A DNA stretch of 64,000 nt from Candidatus Omnitrophica bacterium UBA6249 (GCA_002441305.1 DJVT01000014.1:178791-242790); one strand, 5' to 3'. Numbered from the stretch's first letter, positions 5,383 through 47,758 are shown. The notes: generated by a model not told the origin, from the letters alone. Program-made: numbers and translations.

Positions 5383-5455
5383 AGCCGATGAGTGGAATCG
5401 AACCACCGACCTTGACTTTACGAAAGTCCTGCTCTACCAACTGAGCTACATCGGC
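5383..5455 (-). tRNA. tRNA-Thr (anticodon CGT)
   Basis: Reverse complement GCCGATGTAGCTCAGTTGGTAGAGCAGGACTTTCGTAAAGTCAAGGTCGGTGGTTCGATTCCACTCATCGGCT folds as a 73-nt cloverleaf. Anticodon loop is TTCGTAA and T-loop is TTCGATT. No encoded CCA. Confidence 0.9.
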
Positions 5456-5943: not shown

Positions 5944-6015
5944 TGCCGAGAGAGGGAATCGGACCCCCCACGCCGGCCTTTTCAGGGCCGCGCTCTACCA
6001 CTGAGCTATCTCGGC
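5944..6015 (-). tRNA. tRNA-Phe (anticodon GAA)
   Basis: Reverse complement GCCGAGATAGCTCAGTGGTAGAGCGCGGCCCTGAAAAGGCCGGCGTGGGGGGTCCGATTCCCTCTCTCGGCA folds as a 72-nt cloverleaf with anticodon loop CTGAAAA. The T-loop reads TCCGATT, which is C at position 55 (see findings). Confidence 0.85.
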
Positions 6016-18411: not shown

Positions 18412-18702
18412 TTAATCCGAGCTATCCACCAATTTCATATTATAATATCCCAGCGGCTTGACCTTGGCTTTGGACTTTCCTACCAGCCAATCATGGTATT
18501 TCCCCATAAAACGGTCATGATCGGATTTCTTTTCCCATTTGTACACGGAGGCATATTGGTTTTCAAACCCGTATCTGCGCATAGTCTTATATGACAGGAA
18601 ACCCCTGGACTTCCTGGTATGGGAAGCCCACATAAGGCTGTCCTTGCGGTATTTGGAAACCTCTTTCGGCTTTACCTCGAAAAGAACAACATGGACAAAC
18701 AT
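18412..18702 (-). CDS. Small ABM/Dabb-like (ferredoxin-like fold) protein, function unknown
   Basis: 96 aa. The beta-alpha-beta pattern MFVHVVLFEVKP...YASVYKWE resembles antibiotic-biosynthesis-monooxygenase-like domains. It has its own SD GGGGGAGG and a TGTATAAT element upstream. Confidence 0.35.
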   Translation of the reverse strand: MFVHVVLFEVKPKEVSKYRKDSLMWASHTRKSRGFLSYKTMRRYGFENQYASVYKWEKKSDHDRFMGKYHDWLVGKSKAKVKPLGYYNMKLVDSSD

Positions 18703-18771: not shown

Positions 18772-20568
18772 TTACCATTTAAGCTTTAAACCCGCCTCAA
18801 TATACCTGCCCGGTTGGGGAATCCCCTCGATATCCTGGTATTCCACGTTAAAAATATTCTCTCCGCGCAGGAACACCCTGGTATTTTCGTTCAAATCCCA
18901 GTTCAAACCGGAGTTAAACAACAGCCACCCCCTCCGGCCGGGCCTCTTTTTATAATTAAAACCGAACTCCTGCCGCCCAAAGAAAAGATCGAGGTTAAAA
19001 ACTGCATTGGCCAAATGCCTGGCGTAATTGGGGCCGTATTTATACATATACCCCTGGTTGTCTATTCTTTTATCGGCATAAGAATAATTGGCGTCAAGGC
19101 TGAGAAAGCTGTTAAATGCCTTATGCATGACATATTCGACCCCGAATACTTCATCCCGGGTGAAATTCTTCGCCTGCCATTTCTGAGATGAATCAGACCT
19201 GACCCAATCGATCATCTCCCTCTCTCTACGCATAAACAGGGAGAACCTGGAAACAAAACCTTCATTTTCATACTCCAGGCCTGTCTCATAGTTCCAGGCT
19301 GTCTCTGCGGCCAGGCTGCTGTTGCCTTCCGTGGTGGGATCGCTGTAATAAAGCTCCGTAAAGGAGGGCAATCGCATATTCCTCGCAATCCCGAAATTAA
19401 AGGATACTTCCGGGGTAAGCGTAAATTTCAAGTTCAATGACCCGGTAAAGACATCTCCGAACCCCGAGAATTTTTCCCAGCGCACGCAGGAACCGGCTTC
19501 CCATTTTTCCCCGAGAGGGATATTTTCATCTAAGAAAATGCCTGAGCGGGTTCGCGAATGCCTGCCCAGGTTCGTGGAAGTGATCTTTTCCATGGACCAC
19601 TCCGAACCGAAACCAAGCCTGCCCAGCGGGCCAAGGTCCCTTTGCAGGTAAATCCCCGGGGTGAATATGTCCGTGCGATGCTGGTTAACGGATGCCGAAC
19701 GCAATCCCGTCTTATCAAGGACGAATTTATTATAATGCCTACGCCAGAGGAAATCAGGCTTGACCCGGAGCGCGCCGCAATCCAAATCTAAGCCGCTGCT
19801 GAACAAATAAGTCCTGGTGTTCTCCCGGGAAGGGTAGCCTTGCCCCGGAGTATAAAAATCATAGGCGCCAAAATCCTTTTCCTGGTAACCGAAATTATTC
19901 TGCCATGAAAGGCGGTCCGATTGATAGCTGACGTTCAGGGAAGAAGTGAATTTTTCGTAATCGGTATCCTGGCGGAACCCCCTGGAACGGGATTCTTCCG
20001 CAGAGAAACGCAGGCCGAGGTTCTCCATCCTGCCCCCCGCGCTGAACAGAGTATACCCGTTACGCTCGCTTCCCATCCCCGATTCCCAGACAATCTTTTT
20101 CTCGCCCGGGCGACTCAAAGAAAAATTTACCGCGCCCCCCACGGAATCCGGCCCGAACAGGCTGGAGCAGGCCCCGGGTATTACTTCGACCTTCTCGATG
20201 TCCGCCCTGGTAAAAGGTATATCGGAATTGTAATAAGCGGTCTGGGGCTCGTTGATGCGCTGCCCGTTCAGCAGCACAAGGACCTGCTGGAAGGTCGAAG
20301 CGCGCAGGGAAAACCCCGCCTCCATTCCTCCCTGCAAAGCCCTGCTTTGTACATCTACCGGGAGGTTAACCAACCCTTCCAGCCCGCTTTGATAGTTAAA
20401 GGCGTCATCCTGTTCTTTTTCCGCAAAGTAACTCTTTAAGGATAGTTGTTTACGCTTGAGGATCACGAGAGGCTCTAATTCCCCGGGGAACCCCTGATAG
20501 GCAAATAATCCGCCCGGGGGGAAAGACGACAGCAGGATAAGTATAACGCAAGCCCTGAAAATGGACAT
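18772..20568 (-). CDS. TonB-dependent receptor (small, BtuB-sized)
   Basis: Plug motifs VLLNGQRIN and IEKVEVIPGACSSLFGPDSVGGAVNF. The C-terminal barrel ends in GLKLKW. The start is set at the ATG giving MSIFRACVILILLSS (signal peptide). The ORF-track TTG start at 20586 would lie inside the promoter spacer. Confidence 0.85.
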   Translation of the reverse strand: MSIFRACVILILLSSFPPGGLFAYQGFPGELEPLVILKRKQLSLKSYFAEKEQDDAFNYQSGLEGLVNLPVDVQSRALQGGMEAGFSLRASTFQQVLVLLNGQRINEPQTAYYNSDIPFTRADIEKVEVIPGACSSLFGPDSVGGAVNFSLSRPGEKKIVWESGMGSERNGYTLFSAGGRMENLGLRFSAEESRSRGFRQDTDYEKFTSSLNVSYQSDRLSWQNNFGYQEKDFGAYDFYTPGQGYPSRENTRTYLFSSGLDLDCGALRVKPDFLWRRHYNKFVLDKTGLRSASVNQHRTDIFTPGIYLQRDLGPLGRLGFGSEWSMEKITSTNLGRHSRTRSGIFLDENIPLGEKWEAGSCVRWEKFSGFGDVFTGSLNLKFTLTPEVSFNFGIARNMRLPSFTELYYSDPTTEGNSSLAAETAWNYETGLEYENEGFVSRFSLFMRREREMIDWVRSDSSQKWQAKNFTRDEVFGVEYVMHKAFNSFLSLDANYSYADKRIDNQGYMYKYGPNYARHLANAVFNLDLFFGRQEFGFNYKKRPGRRGWLLFNSGLNWDLNENTRVFLRGENIFNVEYQDIEGIPQPGRYIEAGLKLKW

Positions 20569-20574
20569 GCGGGT

Positions 20575-20626
20575 ATTATAAAACAACCCGGTTAATTGTC
20601 AACCAGTAATATTATATTGGTTTACA
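20575..20626 (-). promoter_or_regulatory. BirA-box-like palindrome overlapping a consensus promoter (TTGACA-N16-TATAAT)
   Basis: The minus strand reads TAA TGTAAACCA atataatattac TGGTTGACA attaaccgggttgttt TATAAT acccgc ATG. The half-sites at 20618-20626 and 20597-20605 form an 8/9 inverted repeat. The -35 is at 20597-20602 and the -10 at 20575-20580. Confidence 0.6.
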
Positions 20627-21583
20627 TTACCGCAGATGCGAAACATCCCCGGAGAATATCTTCTGCACCAGCCCCGAGTCTTTCCGGATAAGCAGGGATC
20701 CGTCATTGTCTATATCCAGGGCCTGGCCTTCGATATGGCTGTCCTGAAAATGCACTTTCACCCGGTTGCCGATAGTTATGTTGGAATTACGCCATTTTTC
20801 AATTACGGGCCCGGGGCCTCCTTCCTCAAAGAGAAAATAGTTCTCCTCCAGGACGCGCAGGAGCTCCTGGAAAACAACCAGGCGCGGCATGGCATGCCCC
20901 AGCTGTTCTTTCAAGGACGTGGCGTGGGGGACGAGGGATTTCCTGTCATTGTTCACATTCAGGCCTATGCCGATAACCACAAAATTAACCTTGTCCGTTT
21001 CGGCATTCATCTCGGTAAGTATGCCGGCCGCTTTTTTGCCGGAAATGAAGATATCATTCGGCCATTTGATGCGCGCTTCCAGGCCGGATGCCCTTTTAAT
21101 TGCCTCGCAAATGCTTACCGCGGTCAAAAGCGTCAATACCGGCGACGCCGAAGGAGGTATGCGCGGTCTCAGGATAAGGGAAAAATAAATCCCTTTGTAT
21201 TTCGGGGAAACCCAGCTTCTGCCCAGCCTCCCCCGGCCTTTTGTCTGCGATTCCGCCACCACAATCGACCCCGCAGGCTCGCAGCGCATACCGAGCTGCA
21301 TCGCAAAATCCATGGTGGAAGAAAGATAATCGAAATAATGCACTTTTCTGGCGATAAACTTGGTATCGAGGCCATGCGAGACTTCAAGCCCGGAAAGCCT
21401 GTCGGGGCTGGATTCCAGCCGGTAACCGAGATGAGGAACGGCCACGATATCGTAACCGGTATCTTTCAATTCCTGGATATGTTTCCACAACCCCTGCCTG
21501 CTGATCCCCAGGCGGGAAGATATGTCATCCCCGGACATATAATCATGTTTTCCTTTAAGATAAGCGAGTATTTTTTCTTTCAT
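20627..21583 (-). CDS. birA: Bifunctional biotin-protein ligase / biotin operon repressor
   Basis: 318 aa. N-terminal wHTH (ISSRLGISRQGLWKHIQELKDTGY) and the ligase loop KGRGRLGRSW. Confidence 0.9.
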   Translation of the reverse strand: MKEKILAYLKGKHDYMSGDDISSRLGISRQGLWKHIQELKDTGYDIVAVPHLGYRLESSPDRLSGLEVSHGLDTKFIARKVHYFDYLSSTMDFAMQLGMRCEPAGSIVVAESQTKGRGRLGRSWVSPKYKGIYFSLILRPRIPPSASPVLTLLTAVSICEAIKRASGLEARIKWPNDIFISGKKAAGILTEMNAETDKVNFVVIGIGLNVNNDRKSLVPHATSLKEQLGHAMPRLVVFQELLRVLEENYFLFEEGGPGPVIEKWRNSNITIGNRVKVHFQDSHIEGQALDIDNDGSLLIRKDSGLVQKIFSGDVSHLR

Positions 21584-46032: not shown

Positions 46033-46605
46033 TTAACAAATAAACTCTTTGACGCGGGAATGCGTCTTACAGAAAACGAATACTGCAAAAACTGCCTTCA
46101 GAATATCCCCGAAAACAAAAGGCAGAAATCCGGATAAAAACGCCTGCGCTAACGAACAACCCATATAAGCTTTCAGCCAGAGGGCGCCACTGCATAAAAG
46201 GATAAAATCTGCGCACAAGAATACAAAAAAGATGTATTTCCGGCTTAAATTCTTCCCCGTAAATAACTTGCCGGTGAAAAAAGAGGCCAGGATGAAACCA
46301 ACAAGATATCCTCCAGTCGGTCCCAGCAGATATAAAGAACCGCTTCCTGATCCCGTAAATACCTGAAGCCCGGTCAATCCCAAGACCATATACCCGGCCT
46401 GGGAAATCCCCCCCAGCTTTCTTCCCAGCAAAGCCCCCGATAAAAGGACAAAAAATGTCTGCAGGGTAAAAGGAACCGGAGTAAAAGGCAGGGGGATACG
46501 CACAAAAGCCGATAAAGCGGTCAACAGCACAAAAATTGAAACGGCCAGGAAACGGCATATCCTCTTATTATCGCAAACAATTTCTTTTTTAATCACAGAT
46601 TCCAT
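46033..46605 (-). CDS. bioY: Biotin transporter BioY
   Basis: 190 aa. PFTLQTFFVLLSGALLG and GPTGGYLVGF motifs. Confidence 0.85.
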   Translation of the reverse strand: MESVIKKEIVCDNKRICRFLAVSIFVLLTALSAFVRIPLPFTPVPFTLQTFFVLLSGALLGRKLGGISQAGYMVLGLTGLQVFTGSGSGSLYLLGPTGGYLVGFILASFFTGKLFTGKNLSRKYIFFVFLCADFILLCSGALWLKAYMGCSLAQAFLSGFLPFVFGDILKAVFAVFVFCKTHSRVKEFIC

Positions 46606-46622
46606 CTTTTTCTCCTTTTATC

Positions 46623-46832
46623 TCATTCTTTAGCCATGATCAGCACAACTGCGCCGATGAAAATGAAAAATAACCCCGCGCAGCCTTTAAAAACTACAAG
46701 GCAGGCATCCCACCACCCCAGGAAAGCCCACCCTCCCAACACAAGAAACAACAGGCCTAAAATAACCTTAAGTATGGCAAACAAGGTCTTCTGCGCCCTG
46801 CAACAGCATTTATCTTCCTCGCCTGGCATCAA
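46623..46832 (-). CDS. Small two-TM Cys-rich membrane protein, function unknown
   Basis: 69 aa with an N-terminal EEDKCCC and two hydrophobic helices. It is tightly packed between the lpxL-like gene and bioY. Confidence 0.4.
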   Translation of the reverse strand: MMPGEEDKCCCRAQKTLFAILKVILGLLFLVLGGWAFLGWWDACLVVFKGCAGLFFIFIGAVVLIMAKE

Positions 46833-46843
46833 ACTCCTCCCTT

Positions 46844-47758
46844 TTAACTATTGGGCCTGCTCTTCCACCGGCGGTGTATCCAGCCCCATTCCGCAGGATA
46901 TTTTCTTATGTAAGATTCGATGATATCGGTTAAATTCTGGATATTCATAGTTACCGTATCATGCGCGCCGGTTCCCTGGACAAGTTCCATCTCCGGTTCG
47001 AAAACAGCCTTATGGCAATCCCCGGGTTGACGGATAATAAAACAGGGTATTAGCGCCGCGCCCGTACGTTGAGCGAGGATAACCGGGCCTGTAGCCGTAG
47101 CTGCCTTCTGCCCGAAGAACTCGATAAAAACCCCTCCCGAACCGAAATTCTGGTCTATGGGAATAAAAATTATCTCGTTATTGCGCAAGGCCTGAATAGT
47201 TTCGTTAACACAAGTATTCCGGGGCTGGCTGTAAATCGTCCTTACGCCGTATTTATCCCTTTTCTTGCGGAAGACTTCTTCCATGCGGGTGTCGTGCATC
47301 GGTTTCATTATCCCCCCCGTCTTATATCCGGCTACCGCCAGCCTCCCGAGAAGCAAAGGGAAATTTCCGAAATGGGCGCTTACCAGGATAACTCCTTTGC
47401 CTTTAGCCAACGCCCTATCCAGATGCTCGACTCCAACAAACTCTACTTTATCCTTTAAAAGCCGGGGCTTGTCGAAAAAAAACATCAATTCAACCGCGCC
47501 CTTGGCGATATTGGAGAAACAATCCCGGGCGATGCGCTCCAGCTCCTCTTCGCCCTTTTCTTTCCCAAAAGCCACTCTTAAGCTGGACAAAGCGATATCC
47601 TTATGTTTCCTGGCAAAAATATAGGCTAAAACCGATATTCTTTGCGCGAACTTATAAAGACAGCCCGGCGGGATTGTCTTGACTATCAGGAAGCATATGT
47701 TCAGGCCAACCCAGGCCATAAACCTGCTGAAGATTTTCCGAATTTTCTTAAGATTCAT
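46844..47758 (-). CDS. Lipid A biosynthesis (LpxL/HtrB-type) lysophospholipid acyltransferase family protein
   Basis: 304 aa. N-terminal TM helix, the SAHFGNFPL motif and PIDQN motif contexts. Confidence 0.75.
   Translation of the reverse strand: MNLKKIRKIFSRFMAWVGLNICFLIVKTIPPGCLYKFAQRISVLAYIFARKHKDIALSSLRVAFGKEKGEEELERIARDCFSNIAKGAVELMFFFDKPRLLKDKVEFVGVEHLDRALAKGKGVILVSAHFGNFPLLLGRLAVAGYKTGGIMKPMHDTRMEEVFRKKRDKYGVRTIYSQPRNTCVNETIQALRNNEIIFIPIDQNFGSGGVFIEFFGQKAATATGPVILAQRTGAALIPCFIIRQPGDCHKAVFEPEMELVQGTGAHDTVTMNIQNLTDIIESYIRKYPAEWGWIHRRWKSRPNS

Follow-up and report, generated by a model that had tools for sequence, protein, structure and literature searches.

A gene for a TonB-dependent receptor in the genome of Candidatus Omnitrophica bacterium UBA6249 appears to be controlled by the biotin-sensing repressor BirA, whose own gene lies directly upstream. 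The receptor is encoded in a stretch of 64,000 nt (GCA_002441305.1, DJVT01000014.1:178791-242790), here called the window, with coordinates counted from its first letter; birA, the receptor and their neighbours are on its minus strand. The 58-nt gap between birA and the 598-aa open reading frame (ORF) of the receptor holds a 30-bp palindrome, a candidate BirA operator, which overlaps a sigma-70-type promoter. Our preferred explanation, to which we assign a probability of about 0.6, is that the receptor is repressed by BirA and imports biotin or a close vitamer. The elements that carry this explanation are the following.

20627..21583, minus strand: birA, 318 aa, with its TAA stop at 20629-20627
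20597..20626, minus strand: candidate BirA operator, with the distal half-site at 20626-20619 and the proximal half-site at 20604-20597
20575..20602, minus strand: sigma-70-type promoter, with the -35 box TTGACA at 20602-20597, a 16-nt spacer and the -10 box TATAAT at 20580-20575
20578..20606, minus strand: terminator-like element of the window, an 8-bp hairpin followed by GUUGUUUUAU
20566..20568, minus strand: ATG start codon of the receptor, 6 nt past the -10 box and after ACCCGC
18772..20568, minus strand: TonB-dependent receptor, 598 aa, with plug and beta-barrel
20455..20481, minus strand: TonB-box-like segment ELEPLVILK, residues 30-38 of the receptor, just behind the predicted signal peptide

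Directly after the birA stop codon the minus strand reads TGTAAACCAATATAATATTACTGGTTGACA (20626-20597). A preliminary description of the window had reported an inverted repeat at this position, and both the sequence and the coordinates it gave are correct; the repeat is better written with a 14-nt than with a 12-nt spacer, as two 8-nt half-sites in the form TGTAAACC-N14-GGTTGACA. Compared with TGTAAACC-N14-GGTTTACA it agrees at 15 of 16 positions. Behind the TAA of birA the gap reads TGTAAACC-AATATAATATTACT-GGTTGACA-ATTAACCGGGTTGTTT-TATAAT-ACCCGC-ATG, and the same description was right in placing a perfect TTGACA in the proximal half-site, followed by 16 nt, TATAAT at 20580-20575, 6 nt and the ATG at 20568. 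Its assignments of an N-terminal winged helix-turn-helix (wHTH) to BirA, of TonB-dependent receptor identity to the downstream ORF, in which we find the Plug and TonB_dep_Rec_b-barrel domains, and of bioY to 46033-46605 also hold. The receptor promoter, TTGACA-16-TATAAT, matches the consensus at 12 of 12 positions, and its -35 hexamer sits inside the proximal operator half-site. Such a promoter is unremarkable here when taken alone, as a second one serves a cspA-like gene about 2 kb away. We found no other palindrome of this kind in the 64-kb window, where the runners-up have three mismatches and other spacings. By chance, about 0.01 sites per window would be expected with at most one mismatch and any spacer of 8-21 nt (49/4^16 x 64,000 x 14).

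The published BirA consensus is TTGTAAACC-[N14/15]-GGTTTACAA, and sites of the form TTGTcAACC-[N14]-GGTTgACAA lie upstream of bioB, bioF and bioW in Geobacter and Desulfuromonas (PMC545781). The Omnitrophota site has the same half-sites as these, the same N14 spacing and the same GGTTgACA variant, in which a T is replaced by a G. It is because half-sites, spacing and this T-to-G variant equal the published BirA signal that we regard the palindrome as a BirA operator with high confidence. That BirA binds it and represses the receptor promoter is, judged from the sequence, very probable.

The expectation, raised in the preliminary description, that the palindrome would be kept at orthologous loci was borne out. 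Orthologs of the receptor, at 35-99% identity, come from Omnitrophota, and a scan with one genome per GTDB species gave 80 Omnitrophota loci with receptor relatives at 35-70% identity. In two of these the 5' end of the gene is cut off, leaving 78 with upstream sequence, and 74 of the 78 carry the palindrome just upstream of the receptor. All but two of the 74 sites have at most one mismatch to TGTMAACY-N14-RGTTKACA; those of loci L018 and L046 have two. In the profile of the 74 sites, positions G2, T3, A5, A6 and C7 and, in the other half, T25, T26, A28 and C29 are invariant, and the 14-nt spacer is AT-rich and free to vary. The distal half-site plays no part in the promoter, so selection on the -35 box cannot be the cause of its invariance. 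A degenerate pattern with spacers of 13-16 nt allowed gave 73 matches in 896 kb, every one of them with the N14 spacing and at a receptor promoter. The promoter itself has a spacer of 16 nt in 52 of the 74 loci and of 17 nt in 18, and its -10 box is a perfect TATAAT in 66.

The birA gene lies immediately upstream of the receptor in 72 loci, and the site is present in all 72; in 38 loci the operator follows the birA stop by 0-1 nt. Operator and promoter are also kept in two loci where the neighbour is not birA, namely L064 (1905-1934), next to a divergent DUF7305 gene, and L066 (4283-4312), next to a 1393-aa ORF without a Pfam match. Since the site is kept there without an adjacent birA, it belongs to the receptor promoter. 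Two further loci, L077 and L080, preserve the larE-nifS-receptor-mnmA synteny, and both birA and the operator are missing from them. In a rough neighbour-joining tree they are nested among deep operator-bearing branches, which suggests that operator and birA were lost there by secondary deletion.

The regulator itself appears fully equipped. Pfam places HTH_11 (E = 1e-14) at residues 3-55 of the birA product, together with BPL_LplA_LipB and BPL_C. With 221.6 bits the protein exceeds the TIGR00121 cut-off of 83.1; for TIGR00122, the repressor-domain model, it reaches 54.8, below the cut-off of 70. The translation carries the catalytic-core motifs of class II enzymes, the GRGRxGR biotin loop (here GRGRLGR) and the lysine of the KWPND motif, and it aligns over its full length with the BirA proteins of E. 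coli (1bia) and S. aureus. On these sequence features birA encodes a complete class II bifunctional biotin-protein ligase and repressor with an N-terminal wHTH, like that which acts at bioO in E. coli.

Compared with E. coli bioO and with the Geobacter and Desulfuromonas sites, the element is alike in its half-sites, its 14-nt AT-rich spacer, the T-to-G change that creates TTGACA and the overlap with a promoter. The window thus contains the inverted repeat, the AT-rich spacer within the 14-16 nt of bioO-type sites, the overlap with the core promoter and the wHTH-bearing BirA that mark this class, whereas a site upstream of biotin genes in the same taxon, which also marks it, is absent at bioY. 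The Omnitrophota element differs from sites of the bioO type in four further respects. Its predicted target is an outer-membrane TonB-dependent receptor, in place of bioY or the genes of biotin biosynthesis; it directly adjoins the birA stop codon; the mRNA made from its promoter would apparently be leaderless, and a hairpin and U-tract are interwoven with that promoter; and across some 1.4 Mb from Omnitrophota no target other than the receptor was detected.

The receptor scores above the cut-off of both TonB-dependent receptor domains, with 34.5 against 23.9 for PF07715 (Plug) and 97.8 against 27 for PF00593 (beta-barrel). In the AlphaFold model the barrel is confident and the plug poorly predicted (mean predicted local distance difference test score, pLDDT, of 67). 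A fold search returned Cir, PirA and BtuB at E ~1e-23, with 16-18% identity and template modelling (TM) scores of about 0.67-0.71; matches to PDB sequences were local only (E ~1e-8). The N-terminus, MSIFRACVILILLSSFPPGGLFA, is hydrophobic when read by eye. It is followed by a segment that has the consensus ELEPLVIxKQK in an alignment of 17 receptor sequences, with L31, V35 and I36 invariant, and which, likewise read by eye and by comparison with the TonB boxes of BtuB and FhuA, may be the TonB box. BtuB, Cir and PirA are alike to the receptor in their size class of about 600 aa, in a plug and a 22-strand-type barrel and perhaps in a TonB-box-like N-terminus.

As the explanation in the preliminary description requires, the receptor stands apart from characterised cobalamin and siderophore receptors. 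It falls far below the cut-off of every substrate-specific NCBIfam model: the cobalamin-receptor models TIGR01779 (TonB-B12) and NF007926 score 82.5 against 599.7 and 53.4 against 836, the siderophore model TIGR01783 reaches 58 of the 223.5 required, and the FepA and heme cut-offs are missed by a wide margin as well. An Rfam scan of the 64-kb window returned two tRNAs and no riboswitch, and scans of six control loci and of the region upstream of the receptor relative in locus L078 gave no riboswitch either; control of the receptor by a B12 or thiamine pyrophosphate (TPP) riboswitch was rejected on this basis. No Fur box was recognised at the receptor, where the best match to the E. coli-type box has 6-10 mismatches of 19, and the Fur motif of Omnitrophota themselves may differ. 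By its domains and modelled fold the receptor is a TonB-dependent transporter that lies outside the BtuB, siderophore and heme families. BtuB is a vitamin importer, as is proposed for the receptor; the receptor described here differs from it in having only 16-18% identity, in lacking a B12 riboswitch and in its predicted control by a biotin-sensing protein repressor.

The most distant receptor relatives, at 35-37% identity, are those of L078 (5980-8604) and L079, which come from 'Candidatus Undivivens industriae' and one relative and lie directly upstream of thiM, the gene for hydroxyethylthiazole kinase. We considered this adjacency as a hint of a vitamin-receptor family and set it aside, given that the L078 upstream region has no TPP riboswitch and that the two loci represent a single lineage.

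Transcription from the receptor promoter would begin at or next to the start codon. The -10 box is separated from the ATG by 6-7 nt in 64 of 74 loci, and a motif resembling a Shine-Dalgarno (SD) sequence precedes the receptor in only 2 of 72, unlike in bioY and an ABM-like ORF of the window, which have clear SD sequences. The signal-peptide-like N-terminus starts at the ATG at 20568. With this ATG at or next to the predicted transcription start, 6 nt past the -10 box, a leaderless mRNA is predicted, and we consider that the receptor is probably translated from one.

A hairpin and U-tract are superimposed on the same segment. In the window the hairpin has an 8-bp stem, CUGGUUGA-CAA-UUAACCGG (20606-20588), followed by GUUGUUUUAU, and is called by a terminator scan. 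In most orthologs a stronger hairpin with its U-tract covers the promoter spacer, the -10 box, the ATG and codons 4-8 (the region is 20535-20606, minus strand, in the window and 2178-2245 in L009, 5967-6034 in L017 and 5879-5946 in L045). The U-tract doubles as Phe and Ile codons of the receptor signal peptide. The ortholog hairpins fold with a median energy of -17 kcal/mol; their z-score has a median of -3.7, compared with 0 in random controls, and 60 of 73 loci fall below -2. As the stems differ in register, RNAalifold gave no structure when 31 promoter regions were aligned without gaps, and the sequences were instead folded one by one and aligned with a covariance model. The covariance-model alignment of 64 loci contains compensatory changes in 10 of 11 hairpin pairs. 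Its covariation score is 0.408, compared with 0.231 in shuffles (0 of 500 reach 0.408) and 0.11-0.21 in slid controls, a score to be read in the knowledge that the alignment was fitted to the covariance model. In L064 and L066, which have no birA upstream, the hairpin is absent (z -0.9 and +0.1).

Transcripts that begin at the predicted start would not include the 5' arm, which is encoded upstream of it, and the hairpin could therefore form only in RNA that comes from birA. It would then terminate or silence read-through from birA, with the result that the receptor would be made only from the BirA-controlled promoter. Comparison of the loci shows what the predicted site is, that it overlaps the promoter and is linked to the receptor, that it is conserved throughout the phylum, and that the hairpin covaries.

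These elements can be combined into the following mechanism. When biotin is sufficient, BirA loaded with biotinoyl-5'-AMP would dimerise on TGTAAACC-N14-GGTTGACA; on the proximal half-site, which is also the -35 hexamer, it would exclude RNA polymerase and keep the receptor off. When biotin is scarce, biotinoyl-AMP would be spent on apo-carboxylase, BirA would leave the operator and the strong promoter would fire, producing a leaderless mRNA from at or next to the ATG. The hairpin and U-tract in read-through RNA from birA would shield the receptor gene from the operon upstream, which is constitutive. Passage over the outer membrane would be the task of the receptor, with biotin or a closely related vitamer (dethiobiotin or biocytin, for instance) as its cargo, and a constitutive BioY would then carry biotin across the inner membrane. 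A ligand of the biotin family is suggested by the identity of the regulator, and we rate it at somewhat better than even odds. On this view the receptor is the first well-supported candidate for an active outer-membrane importer of biotin.

The genes that surround the receptor, and the more distant bioY, are arranged as follows. The minus-strand run reads larE-like, nifS, AIR-synthase-related gene, birA and receptor.

24580-23777, minus strand: larE-like gene
23775-22612, minus strand: nifS
22625-21555, minus strand: AIR-synthase-related gene, with weak similarity to HypE, ThiL and SelD
18412..18702, minus strand: ABM-like ORF, 96 aa, 69 nt downstream of the receptor
46033..46605, minus strand: bioY, inner-membrane biotin transporter S-component (Pfam BioY, E = 3.3e-38)

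The AIR-synthase-related ORF overlaps the start of birA by 29 nt; only 19 of the 80 loci have such a gene between nifS and birA. The ABM-like ORF, present downstream of the receptor in 42 of 80 loci, may be co-transcribed with it. This ORF has a strong SD sequence of its own and a weak match to Pfam ABM (E = 3e-4, below the cut-off); it gave no NCBIfam match and, by sequence search, no meaningful PDB match. Further downstream lies the cold-shock (cspA-like) gene (18252-18052, minus strand; CSD, E = 8e-30). It is preceded, at 18396-18369 on the minus strand and about 2 kb from the receptor promoter, by the second perfect TTGACA-16-TATAAT, and its leader of about 110 nt, with a hairpin and a U-run around 18345-18305, resembles the long 5' untranslated regions of cspA. 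The two tRNA genes of the window are at 5383-5455 and 5944-6015 (minus strand). Nearly all window genes examined are on the minus strand and the GC skew is below zero in all 4-kb bins (-0.07 to -0.16), a pattern that fits a single replichore in which the genes are strongly co-oriented.

The window bioY encodes a solitary S-component, with no bioMN nearby, and follows a lipid-A acyltransferase gene and a 69-aa membrane ORF (46832-46623; the whole region is 46033-47758, minus strand). Receptor and bioY occur on the same contigs, about 26-30 kb apart, in the window and in the 646,801-bp contig of L067 and L142. A metagenome scan gave 80 Omnitrophota bioY loci (L081-L160, 484 kb) for comparison, and a motif search with a regular expression for BioB over the 160 loci and the window found no bioB. 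Biotin biosynthesis is patchy or partial in Omnitrophota (PMC10066038; bioRxiv 10.64898/2026.06.07.730766, a preprint); among 176 genomes in the preprint, bioB was present in 98, bioF in 79, bioA in 66 and bioD in 74. Such a patchy pathway fits a need for scavenging.

BirA regulons normally cover bio biosynthesis genes and bioY. The preliminary description had expected a similar site upstream of a biotin gene and had the receptor feeding BioY. Of its overall interpretation, regulation by BirA is strongly supported, by the consensus, the class II BirA and the conservation in 74 of 78 loci, and the expected site upstream of bioY was not found. Since bioY has no BirA site, the link from receptor to BioY is drawn from co-occurrence in the same genomes and not from co-regulation. 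On the present sequences bioY appears to be constitutive in Omnitrophota. BioY and BioYMN in BirA or BioR regulons are similar to the receptor in being uptake components under a biotin regulator; BioY acts at the inner membrane, and in Omnitrophota it is without an operator, so that regulation appears to have moved to the outer-membrane step.

A number of observations weigh against a BirA-repressed receptor for biotin. The window bioY has no BirA site, and neither has any of the 80 Omnitrophota bioY loci, in which a lone N13 match with two mismatches lies inside a coding region. The receptor is the only BirA target detected, which is atypical for BirA. Biotin (244 Da) can cross general porins in model bacteria, so that an active receptor is not obviously needed. 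No TonB, ExbB or ExbD was found in the 64-kb window by a crude regular expression, a result that is not informative; proteins with a TonB C-terminal domain have been reported in Omnitrophota (preprint, bioRxiv 10.64898/2026.06.07.730766). The hairpin of the window is weak, at -7.9 kcal/mol (z = -2.8), and the apical loops of the ortholog hairpins are large, at about 18-25 nt. A simple terminator scan, limited to loops of up to 8 nt, calls neither the L017 nor the L045 hairpin, and for this reason we describe the terminator role as putative. The receptor also sits in a conserved housekeeping block for sulfur and Fe-S metabolism, larE-nifS-(birA)-receptor-mnmA-nadA, and in L077 (3100-3160) and L080 (5900-5960) its ATG overlaps the nifS stop, an arrangement of translational coupling. 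The adjacency of birA and receptor could thus be in part inherited synteny, and the receptor could have a function other than vitamin uptake.

It is possible that BirA represses the receptor and that the cargo is not biotin itself. The receptor would in that case take up a precursor or conjugate, such as dethiobiotin, 7-keto-8-aminopelargonic acid (KAPA), pimelate, biocytin or biotinylated peptides, or a nutrient that tracks biotin-dependent carboxylation. BirA regulons may hold the non-biosynthetic genes fabF, fabH and acpP (PMC5343134), and a receptor with another cargo could be likened to the BirA-controlled fab genes of Desulfovibrionales. The partial bio pathways of many Omnitrophota would fit salvage of a vitamer, bioY is not co-regulated, and the fold search is uninformative on the ligand. 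Against this, the transporters under BirA control in described regulons are biotin transporters (BioY, BioYMN), and BirA senses biotinoyl-AMP only, which makes biotin the most economical cargo. We consider another cargo unlikely.

The conserved larE-nifS-receptor-mnmA-nadA synteny and the coupling of the receptor to nifS in L077 and L080 could instead point to an iron, heme or corrinoid receptor that belongs to the sulfur and Fe-S cluster, with an incidental palindrome that might be a remnant of birA-linked regulation and of little physiological consequence. The annotations given to homologs are generic ('iron complex outermembrane receptor', 'vitamin B12 transporter'), and the ABM fold suggested for the downstream ORF takes in IsdG-type heme oxygenases. 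The ABM match is, however, below cut-off and the ORF has no obvious IsdG-type N-terminal motif. The siderophore, heme and B12 models of NCBIfam are likewise far from their cut-offs, no cobalamin riboswitch was detected, and the best Fur-box match has at least 6 mismatches of 19. An incidental palindrome is also difficult to reconcile with half-sites that are invariant across receptors at 38-70% identity, which speaks for strong ongoing selection on the operator. We consider an iron, heme or corrinoid receptor decidedly improbable.

That the palindrome is not a BirA site, and is instead a birA terminator, an UP-element or the operator of another transcription factor, would agree with its position right after the birA stop, where a terminator is expected, and with the resemblance of its AT-rich spacer to an UP-element, but is very improbable in view of the identity of sequence and spacing with the BirA consensus (PMC545781), the persistence of the site in L064 without a co-directional birA upstream, the separate covarying hairpin and U-tract that supply a terminator-like element, and the weak folding of the palindrome RNA (-4.9 to -5.6 kcal/mol, z -0.8 to -1.4), whose arms are conserved in sequence and not through covariation. 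The last two properties led us to reject the palindrome as an RNA hairpin or terminator. The TyrR box, TGTAAA-N6-TTTACA, differs from it in spacing.

A BirA-repressed receptor for biotin or a close vitamer would have parallels among other cofactors. Thiamine TonB-dependent receptors lie behind THI-box riboswitches in Bacteroides and Shewanella. These, and PqqU for pyrroloquinoline quinone (PQQ; PDB 9c4o), are similar in that a dedicated high-affinity outer-membrane receptor is placed under the cofactor's own sensor, even though the cofactor could in principle pass through porins; the thiamine receptors use a riboswitch, whereas the sensor here is BirA. BtuB with its B12 riboswitch is also among the closest functional analogies, as a cofactor receptor that is recognised through its regulator. 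In a collection of about 8 million full texts, which leaves subscription journals largely outside its coverage, the phrase 'TonB-dependent biotin' is absent, and we found there no description of a TonB-dependent receptor regulated by BirA. New here are a predicted BirA regulon with an outer-membrane receptor as its detected target and, plausibly in so far as the substrate is deduced from the regulator, a TonB-dependent receptor with a newly predicted cofactor. We give even odds to the fuller statement that this is the first TonB-energised transporter for biotin or a vitamer, and that in a phylum whose members are ultra-small and in part host-dependent the biotin regulon has been reduced to a single outer-membrane step, under an unusually compact module of about 90 nt in which the operator for BirA is superimposed on a consensus promoter, a leaderless start and a terminator acting only on read-through.

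To our knowledge, no specific protein has been linked to the passage of biotin over the Gram-negative outer membrane at environmental picomolar levels, which is usually assumed to occur by diffusion through porins. A BirA-controlled receptor that is found throughout the phylum provides a concrete gene with which outer-membrane biotin uptake can be tested. If the explanation is correct, biotin would join the short list of cofactors with dedicated TonB-dependent receptors, namely B12, thiamine and PQQ, and a BirA regulon that consists only of an uptake gene would be shown to be possible. The locus would also illustrate how a promoter can be shielded in nature from read-through that arrives from upstream, by a hairpin that is absent from the leaderless transcript which the promoter itself produces. 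Recognition of such receptors would help to annotate B-vitamin auxotrophy and cross-feeding in metagenomes.

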